The notes: generated by a model from the sequence alone, not told the origin. 37,013 bases of DNA from a virus (IMGVR_UViG_2531839666_000012), one strand, 5' to 3'. Shown: positions 21,016 to 22,397, numbered from the stretch's first letter. Translations and numbers: made by a program.

Positions 21016-22397
21016 ATGAACGTGAACTGTCCATTATCCGTGCGCTGGGTGAAGAATTTTCCGCAGTGCTGGCGGATTTACAGCGCACATTTGAGGGGAA
21101 AATAGCCGCGCAGGCACAAACGTTTGAAGAAAAACTGGCTTCCCTGTCTGTGGTATTACAGAAGTGCGTGACGGGCGATGATGTGCGTCCGATGCTTGAG
21201 CAGATGGTGAAGGAGGCGGTAAGCCATATCCCTGTTCCGCGCGACGGTCGTGACTATGATCCCGATGTTCTGCAGAAGGCGGTGAATGATGCGGTCGCAA
21301 ATATTCCGCAGCCGGCAGACGGTAAAAGTATCACCCCGGATGATGTGCGTCCGATGCTTGAACAGATGGTGAAAGAGGCGCTAAGCCATATCCCTGTTCC
21401 GCGTGACGGTCGTGACTACGATCCGGAAGTACTGCAGAAGGCGGTGAATGATGCCGTCGGGAAAATACCGGTACCGGCGGACGGTAAAAGTATCACCCCG
21501 GATGATGTGCGTCCGATGCTTGAACAGATGGTGACAGAGGCAGTGAGCCATATTCCTGTTCCGCGTGATGGTCGTGACTATGATCCGGAAGTACTGCAGA
21601 AGGCGGTGAATGATGCGGTCGCAAATATTCCGCAGCCGGCGGACGGTAAAAGTATCACCCCGGATGATGTGCGTCCGATGCTTGAACAGATGGTGACAGA
21701 GGCAGTGAGCCATATTCCTGTTCCGCGTGATGGTAGTGATTACGATCCGGAAGTACTGCAGAAGGCGGTGAATGATGCGGTCGCAAATATTCCGCAGCCG
21801 GCAGACGGTAAAAGTATCACCCCGGATGATGTGCGTCCGATGCTTGAACAGATGGTGAAGGAGGCGGTAAGCCATATTCCTGTTCCGCGTGATGGTCGTG
21901 ACTATGATCCCGATGTTCTGCAGAAGGCTGTTCTGGATGCGGTGAGTGCCCTGCCGGCTCCGCAGGACGGGCGTGATGCCACGGCACTGGAAATACTCCC
22001 CGCCATTGACGATCAAAAATCCTTTCCCCGGGGCACGTATGCCACACACCAGGGCGGACTCTGGCGGGCGTATGAAAAAACGCACGGGATGCGGGGATGG
22101 GAATGCCTGGTTGACGGGGTGGCGGATATTGACGTCAGCATGACGGGTGAACGGTTGTTCTCTGTGGTGGTCCGGCAGAGCAGTGGCCAGCGTACGGAAA
22201 AAACATTTTCCCTGCCGGTGATGCTCTACCGCGGTGTGTTCAGAGCCGGTGAAACCTACCACCCCGGCGATACGGTGACGTGGGGCGGCTCGCTGTGGCA
22301 CTGCAACAGTATGACCGGTGATAAACCCGGAGAAGCTCATTCATCAGGCTGGACCCTGGCTGCAAAACGTGGGCGGGATGCTGGAGGCGGAAAATGA
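21012..22397 (+). CDS. Repeat-containing head-module protein of unknown function
   Basis: 461 aa with about 4.7 tandem 54-aa repeats and a unique C-terminal 150 aa; located after the portal gene. Confidence 0.5.
   Translation: MNERELSIIRALGEEFSAVLADLQRTFEGKIAAQAQTFEEKLASLSVVLQKCVTGDDVRPMLEQMVKEAVSHIPVPRDGRDYDPDVLQKAVNDAVANIPQPADGKSITPDDVRPMLEQMVKEALSHIPVPRDGRDYDPEVLQKAVNDAVGKIPVPADGKSITPDDVRPMLEQMVTEAVSHIPVPRDGRDYDPEVLQKAVNDAVANIPQPADGKSITPDDVRPMLEQMVTEAVSHIPVPRDGSDYDPEVLQKAVNDAVANIPQPADGKSITPDDVRPMLEQMVKEAVSHIPVPRDGRDYDPDVLQKAVLDAVSALPAPQDGRDATALEILPAIDDQKSFPRGTYATHQGGLWRAYEKTHGMRGWECLVDGVADIDVSMTGERLFSVVVRQSSGQRTEKTFSLPVMLYRGVFRAGETYHPGDTVTWGGSLWHCNSMTGDKPGEAHSSGWTLAAKRGRDAGGGK
21177..21950 (+). 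repeat. Tandem 162-bp in-frame coding repeats
   Basis: Unit starts at 21177, 21339, 21501, 21663 and 21825, each encoding DDVRPMLEQMV(K/T)EA(V/L)SHIPVPRDG(R/S)DYDP(D/E)VLQKAVNDAV..IP.PADGKSITP. Confidence 0.85.

Follow-up and report, generated by a model that had tools for sequence, protein, structure and literature searches.

The stretch of DNA analysed here, referred to below as the window (37,013 nucleotides, IMGVR_UViG_2531839666_000012), is drawn from a lambdoid E. coli prophage of the long-tailed Stx-phage type, of which it forms the late region. Its closest relative is BP-4795, with 96.9% identity, and further relatives include YYZ-2008, 2851 and 1717. In the head module (Table 1), a fused protease-capsid gene is followed by a small ORF, the portal gene, the repeat-bearing gene considered here (ORF461, or X when its homologs are included) and a gp6-like head-tail adaptor gene, with head completion, gp10-like and tail completion genes further downstream. 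The start codon (ATG) of the adaptor gene overlaps the stop codon (TGA) of ORF461 at 22394-22397, and this overlap is kept across species.

Table 1. Positions of the genes and sequence features of the window
Feature	Position	Strand	Remarks
Small terminase	15219-15755		
Large terminase	15778-17438		Frameshifted
Prohead protease-major capsid fusion	17502-19439	+	First gene of this type of head module; PF04586 and PF05065
73-aa ORF	19484-19705		PHROG 829; conserved, between capsid and portal
Portal, 454 aa	19651-21015	+	PF04860 (E 8e-82, residues 54-382); PHROG 2271 positions 1-451
G5 homopolymer in last portal codons	20996-21000	+	Junction alignment with YYZ-2008; 78-locus survey
ATGA overlap of portal stop and ORF461 start	21012-21015	+	
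ORF461 (X), 461 aa	21012-22397	+	Repeat-bearing protein, separate gene
ORF461 N-terminal region, residues 1-55	21012-21176	+	One long amphipathic helix (predicted)
ORF461 repeat region (putative stalk)	21177-21986	+	Four full 162-bp (54-aa) units and a diverged fifth; TRF, unit table, model
ORF461 conserved C-terminal domain, residues 319-461	21966-22394	+	All-beta (predicted), two CBM5/12-like modules
gp6-like head-tail adaptor	22394-22720	+	PF05135 (E 1.4e-7); PHROG 40 Ad1
Tail tube with Ig domain	23861-24646		
Tape measure	25388-28630		
J	33294-36700		Split by a frameshift

The order of capsid, small ORF, portal, X and gp6-like adaptor extends from E. coli, Proteus and Klebsiella to the Rhizobiales, and the capsid-first arrangement recurs in Proteus and alphaproteobacteria. 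The same module order has been described for RcGTA-like prophages, where the post-portal gene of the Methylobacterium LC2/LC3 elements was termed "an additional unknown gene" (PMC11409702, 2024). That gene is a member of the ORF461 family. The 73-aa ORF upstream overlaps the annotated portal start, and Proteus as well as the RefSeq annotations of E. coli have an ORF of equal size at the corresponding position.

The prophage copy in the window carries two lesions outside ORF461, which is itself intact. An A7 run (16045-16051) just before a KNSKST Walker-A-like motif puts the large terminase gene out of frame and divides it into ORFs of 101 aa and 452 aa; in NZ_CP045712, a near-identical prophage shows A8 here and its 553-aa terminase gene is intact. 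Either the A7 run is a mutation that inactivates the gene or it reflects a sequencing error in the homopolymer. Similarly, J is split near 33850 into ORFs of 209 aa and 959 aa, where one frame reads ...IIDVKQC and then CRTRPLW... while the other frame continues. Together these lesions suggest either a defective prophage copy or an assembly prone to indels.

Several other features of the window were recorded. Three ORFs (1986-3044, 3360-4355 and 11871-12806) have matches among the DNA methyltransferase families of phages, and one of these ORFs is directly upstream of an Rz-like spanin gene (12803-13270). Overlapping ORFs of 108 aa and 299 aa at 6910-8123, the larger of which matches transposase PHROG 157, have the look of an IS insertion ahead of the lysis genes. 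At the C-terminus of the major tail tube protein lies an immunoglobulin-like domain (Ig_3 / I-set, residues ~172-250), which is a candidate for a second module of surface display or adhesion in this virion.

The first-pass annotation had placed a tandem coding array in a 461-aa protein encoded after the portal gene, and both points were borne out. Tandem Repeats Finder (TRF) reports a single array at 21177-21928 (period 162, 4.6 copies, 92% matches, 0% indels, score 1259), a second, independent repeat finder returns 4 copies of 300 nt at an exact 162-nt spacing that are 87-91% identical, and the gene upstream gives a strong match to the portal family PF04860. The array shares the frame of ORF461 and begins at residue 56. 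Its units had been called nearly identical, which is an overstatement, as the DNA identity of the four full units ranges from 89.5 to 97.5% and the fifth unit is only 75-78% identical and grades into unique sequence. The full units differ mostly at synonymous sites (for example, 9 synonymous against 2 nonsynonymous codon differences between units 1 and 3), which points to purifying selection; the peptide is therefore constrained and the units are more than fresh duplicates. A 54-aa unit is itself made up of two 27-aa half-units that are related to one another, each with a short helix and an IPxPxDGxS/D linker. The half-unit, which is present from E. coli to Rhizobium, is the ancestral repeat. 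A 319-aa ORF that is itself repetitive lies opposite the array on the minus strand (21381-22340), and is most likely a by-product of a stop-free repeat and no gene.

Long repeats of this kind were also flagged as an assembly risk, and the databases bear this out. Most homologs are "partial" proteins at the ends of contigs of 1.6-3 kb, short-read assemblies break at the locus, and one Klebsiella contig begins inside its ORF461 homolog. Such breaks, along with the homopolymer-type frameshifts elsewhere in the window, could favour the view that the array was collapsed or expanded in assembly and that its copy number is wrong. However, the ORF461 DNA is identical in the complete genome NZ_CP045712, and BP-4795, a phage that was sequenced independently, has an ORF of the same length with 96.5% identity. 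The copy number is therefore corroborated, contrary to the earlier concern; the 4.87-unit class, to which the window belongs, also holds 12 of the 78 loci in the survey below. An assembly artefact is hardly credible here.

The repeat regions of 78 complete E. coli-type loci differ in steps of exactly 162 bp, which gives a ladder with 0.87 units at 1 locus, 1.87 at 5, 2.87 at 14, 3.87 at 43, 4.87 (the class of the window) at 12, 5.87 at 1 and 6.87 at 2. Such an integer ladder of ~1 to 7 units in relatives indicates that copy number changes by unequal recombination, in agreement with the earlier suggestion that the array gains and loses units in this way. Unit-by-unit comparisons, which were interpreted for in-register loci only, show internal units that lack positional orthology between loci (unit 1 of the window, for instance, is closest to unit 3 of locus L008, at 98%), whereas the last partial unit keeps its position with 94-99% identity. 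Shuffled internal units beside a fixed terminal unit are the signature of unequal recombination within the array. In the proposed mechanism, the 162-bp units would recombine unequally or slip, and copy number would shift as a result. The ladder could also serve as a length marker for separating near-identical prophages, which is resolved by long reads only. One 256-aa E. coli protein (P0326) is a chimera in which the portal N-terminus is joined straight to the last repeat and the C-terminal domain, apparently through a deletion between the portal gene and the array.

The C-terminal domain is the invariant part of the protein. From E. coli to alphaproteobacteria it has 22 invariant columns (P.MIYRGVF..G..Y..GDTVTWGGSLWHC...T.DKPG....W.LA.KRGRDG), and W424, W429 and W447 are invariant; the motif WGGSLWHCNSMTGDKPG occupies residues 424-440. 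Two CBM5/12-like modules lie at approximately residues 335-366 and 402-452, the second of which contains GDTVTWGGSLWHC. An AlphaFold model of the C-terminal 160 residues, built on a 56-sequence alignment, is all-beta with a mean pLDDT of 87.2 and matches chitin- and cellulose-binding modules of the CBM5/12 type as well as the terminal parts of tail fibres from phages, as would be expected of the binding domain that had been proposed for this region. Further Foldseek matches are to tail fibres of Agrobacterium phage 7-7-1 (E 4e-4) and to the receptor-binding complex of phage Milano, and a search of viral models finds the same module at the ends of proteins whose labels read collagen triple helix repeat, ChiC_BD, CBM5/12 or tail fibre. 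At the sequence level, Pfam CBM_5_12 scores 20.2 bits on residues 411-433 (E 6e-4) against a cutoff of 26.2, and homologs have faint precomputed CBM5/12 matches. The predicted domain therefore resembles CBM5 and CBM12 modules, such as the chitin-binding domains of Serratia ChiB and Streptomyces ChiC and the cellulose-binding domain of Erwinia EGZ, by fold while remaining below the Pfam threshold by sequence. These modules are normally found on glycoside hydrolases, whereas in ORF461 the module ends a phage structural protein, where glycan binding is putative. To judge from the alignment, such invariance from E. coli to Rhizobium would be unusual for a host-specific adhesin, and the modelled domain may bind a widely shared, generic glycan or nucleate trimer folding.

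Structure prediction was less informative for the remainder of the protein. In the AlphaFold model of the full-length monomer, a helix at residues 3-51 (pLDDT ~80) and the C-terminal domain are confident, while the repeats are rendered as helices of 13 and 17 residues in turn, joined by 12-residue linkers, with a pLDDT of 35-55. The repeat region is thus of low confidence and for this reason the full-length model was kept out of the fold search; of the two regions singled out for prediction by the first-pass annotation, the C-terminal domain was modelled well and the repeat unit poorly. A simple heptad test on residues 3-51 gave a best register no better than shuffled sequences and a periodicity peak at 3.6 and not 3.5, and a canonical coiled coil of the fibritin type is accordingly unsupported for the N-terminal helix.

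ORF461 belongs to a widespread, uncharacterised family. At E<=1e-3 there are 5,605 representatives of clusters at 50% identity (638 at E<=1e-30), mostly of 250-600 aa. About a quarter of complete E. coli genomes (1,242 of 5,426) contain the junction region, at 2,888 places and often in several copies, and Stx-converting prophages are among the carriers. Among named phages the family is nearly confined to E. coli Stx/lambdoid siphophages, with the addition of Salmonella FSL SP-016 and an EBPR siphovirus. PHROG 1289, 2271, 16748 and 8767 represent the same family in the same module order and have no functional description attached; some homologs list Pfam PF28083, a search of NCBIfam gave no meaningful match to ORF461, and a sequence search of solved structures returned only designed helical repeats with marginal E-values.

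All members share an N-terminal helix of ~50 aa, a variable spacer and the conserved C-terminal domain. The N-terminal sequence is conserved within lineages (MNERELS..., MNLRELEAQAK... or MFDGKAFG...). The spacer consists of 27-aa helix-linker units in enterobacteria, Pseudomonas and Rhizobium, of short GKDGRDG runs in Proteus and Morganella, and of long collagen Gly-X-Y tracts in Chelatococcus and Phyllobacterium, where three homologs (loci L109-L111) hold 29-50 triplets at the equivalent genomic position. It is absent from homologs of 167-172 aa and reaches ~25 units in P0241. Such a range, from no units to ~25 or to collagen tracts in their place, fits the length-variable fibre that the first-pass annotation had envisaged. 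ORF461 itself contains no Gly-X-Y tract.

Database names for this gene are confusing, and most of the confusion can be traced to a single homopolymer. With five Gs in the last portal codons (G5), portal and X are two separate genes, and with six (G6) they form an in-frame fusion; the two forms differ in the G-run alone. G5 is the state of the window and of BP-4795, in which the portal ends in ...FRGILKK-TGA, overlapped by the ORF461 ATG, whereas YYZ-2008 and the named isolated phage 2851 have a single fused ORF of ~860 aa. G5 was found in 48 and G6 in 30 of the 78 E. coli-type loci. When these were grouped into 56 haplotypes by an 800-bp flank, 38 were G5-only, 16 were G6-only and 2 contained both, so that G5 and G6 occur on identical 800-bp flanks, and G6 is present in at least 7 sequence clusters. 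In a wider survey of 119 loci (80 close ones from IMG/VR, 34 with one genome per species, and annotated records), portal and X were in different frames in 82 and fused in 28. The record of phi330 has frame inconsistencies in several genes and was excluded as evidence on the state of the junction.

X is separate from the portal gene in every cross-species locus (~30 species), including Kosakonia, Phytobacter, Atlantibacter, Kluyvera, Enterobacter, Buttiauxella, Rouxiella, Pantoea, Pseudomonas, Serratia, Morganella, Phlomobacter, Chelatococcus, Phyllobacterium, Mesorhizobium, Rhizobium and Shinella. In these species, the portal stop overlaps the X start by -4 or -1 nt and the X stop overlaps the adaptor start. 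The ATGA overlap in the window would couple translation of ORF461 to that of the portal gene. In addition, ORF461 has no Pfam match to PF04860, it occupies its own frame, and it matches only positions 528-859 of PHROG 2271, a composite of 859 positions called "portal protein". On these grounds ORF461 is best regarded as an independent gene of the structural module and no part of the portal. As all other species have the split form and G6 appears in several clusters, the fusion in E. coli is a derived and recurrent state, and since the two genes overlap it is mutationally cheap, requiring an indel of one nucleotide.

The G5/G6 difference therefore explains why the gene is labelled both "portal protein" and "frameshifted pseudogene", and both labels are annotation artefacts. 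The PHROG label is inherited from fused E. coli ORFs, and RefSeq (PGAP) lists the identical locus as "phage portal protein, frameshifted", a pseudogene reading that was rejected in view of the two genes at all ~30 cross-species loci. Similarly, the name "gp6-like connector, partial" given to Klebsiella and Salmonella homologs is a naming artefact, as the gp6-like gene is the separate next ORF. A programmed -1 frameshift was considered as a conserved mechanism and rejected. The A-run and G-run vary among haplotypes and species: the window reads CTG AAA AAA TGA before the portal stop, and other split haplotypes read CTG AGA AAA TGA or CTG CGA AAA TGA. No conserved in-frame slippery heptamer precedes the portal stop among the split haplotypes, other species are without the A-run and G-run, and conserved programmed frameshifting is unsupported because these runs are not kept outside the E. 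coli, Pantoea and Phytobacter lineages. Some lineages do carry genuinely damaged copies, as E. coli O157:H7 F7508 and NCTC86 share a frameshift at about residue 825 of the fused ORF, 37 codons short of where the C-terminal domain ends, and NCTC86 has another near portal residue 200. The pervasive portal mislabelling, the G5/G6 fusion toggle and the large conserved family were all missing from the first-pass annotation.

We propose, with about an even chance of being right, that the ORF461 protein is a trimeric accessory fibre of the virion. The N-terminal helix of ~50 residues would anchor and oligomerise the protein on the head or neck, the 54-aa repeats, as short helices with proline-rich linkers between them, would make up a stalk, and the tandem CBM5/12-like modules would form a distal knob for glycan binding or trimer nucleation. 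The length of the stalk would be free to vary because it sets reach only. The separate gene, conserved synteny, start/stop overlaps, modular spacer and confident C-terminal model all favour such a fibre, and its position and coupling suggest that it is present in few copies and sits at, or close to, the portal vertex. A place on the outside of the virion is suggested by the fibre-like architecture and by the occurrence of the C-terminal module elsewhere, glycan binding by the knob is likewise presumed, and it is the collagen-bearing homologs that suggest a trimeric state for the E. coli protein. No published localisation or virion proteomics of this protein was found in the literature on Pankowvirus, Marienburgvirus, BP-4795 and 2851. 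The infective relative phi330 uses OmpC via a J-like tip fibre, and the paper and its supplement give peptide maps for podophages only (PMC12502783). Because phi330 uses OmpC in this way, the ORF461 protein would be accessory and not the primary receptor binder.

A fibre or adhesin with a variable repeat stalk is a kind of phage protein that is already known, and the ORF461 family would be a variant of it. Collagen-like phage fibres with a CBM5/12-type knob (labelled "Collagen triple helix repeat" and "ChiC_BD domain" in BFVD) share with ORF461 the end module and an elongated, presumably trimeric stalk, the tail fibres of phages 7-7-1 and Milano have the terminal module in common with it, and the alphaproteobacterial members of the family bear true collagen tracts. 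However, ORF461 lies in the head module between portal and adaptor and not among tail or baseplate genes, and its stalk consists of helix-linker repeats and not of Gly-X-Y. Neck and head appendages are accessory fibres that end in a domain for folding or binding. The whiskers of T4 (fibritin, wac), the collar spikes of XM1, the head fibres of phi29 and the head spikes of RcGTA are alike in concept (in part after PMC10491603), but none has a sequence or fold match to ORF461. The loop-interrupted helical segments of ORF461 are reminiscent of fibritin, although the canonical heptad register of the latter is unsupported in ORF461.

Other roles have to be weighed against an accessory fibre, and the fusions bear on most of them. 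The P22 portal has an internal barrel-like C-terminal extension. By analogy, the ancestral gene could be a single portal of ~860 aa, of which the window holds a frameshifted pseudogene and the repeats form an internal barrel-like extension, as the PGAP label, the single ORF of YYZ-2008 and 2851 and the coverage of both parts by PHROG 2271 would allow. Such a history is very improbable given that ~30 other species all have two genes with a start codon at the equivalent place, that G5 outnumbers G6 among the flank haplotypes (38 against 16 of 56), that fused E. coli forms still keep the internal ATG of X, and that a collagen triple helix implies 3-fold symmetry as opposed to the 12-fold barrel.

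The main rival is an internal head protein seated on the portal crown, which might leave through the tail with the DNA. Proteins of the SPP1 gp7 and Mu F type are encoded directly after the portal gene and are sometimes fused to it, and ORF461 shares this post-portal position, with translational coupling, and the occasional fusion. In known portals the C-terminus faces the capsid interior. A fusion to it would put the protein on the inner side of the capsid, which counts against an external fibre and keeps the internal reading in contention; such fusions are seen in 30 of the 78 E. coli-type loci, in the named phage 2851 and, as an independent case, in P0241. A conserved C-terminal domain could then bind a universal target such as a peptidoglycan-type glycan, and a thin, elongated shape would permit exit through the tail. 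However, neither Pfam nor PHROGs reveals similarity to the Mu F or gp7 families, whose architecture is entirely different, collagen tracts, like stalks of up to ~25 units, are features typical of fibres on the outside, the C-terminal domain recurs on tail fibres, and fusions are weak evidence of contact where an indel of one nucleotide in overlapping genes suffices; overall we consider an internal location unlikely. A chaperone or scaffold for head or neck assembly that is missing from mature particles would suit a gene located among, and coupled to, assembly genes and a C-terminal domain conserved whatever the host. It is nevertheless quite improbable, since extreme length variability, collagen spacers and a CBM-type end module are unlike known scaffolds and chaperones, and the capsid protein already has its own N-terminal protease and scaffold-like segment.

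The labelling of the locus as portal or broken portal inflates pseudogene counts and hides a real gene. As a bolder and clearly unlikely extension, the G5/G6 tract could act as a heritable, reversible switch between a free fibre and a portal-tethered one, with slippage in transcription or at the ribosome possibly adding to it, and the family would be an undescribed portal-vertex component of one class of HK97-like siphophage heads. If such a switch were real, sibling phages would differ in virion composition. If the protein is an accessory adhesin, its length polymorphism and conserved glycan-type knob could influence how temperate phages, the Stx phages among them, adsorb to cells, to mucus or to the matrix of biofilms. 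For structural virologists, the family is a candidate for a new head or neck component.
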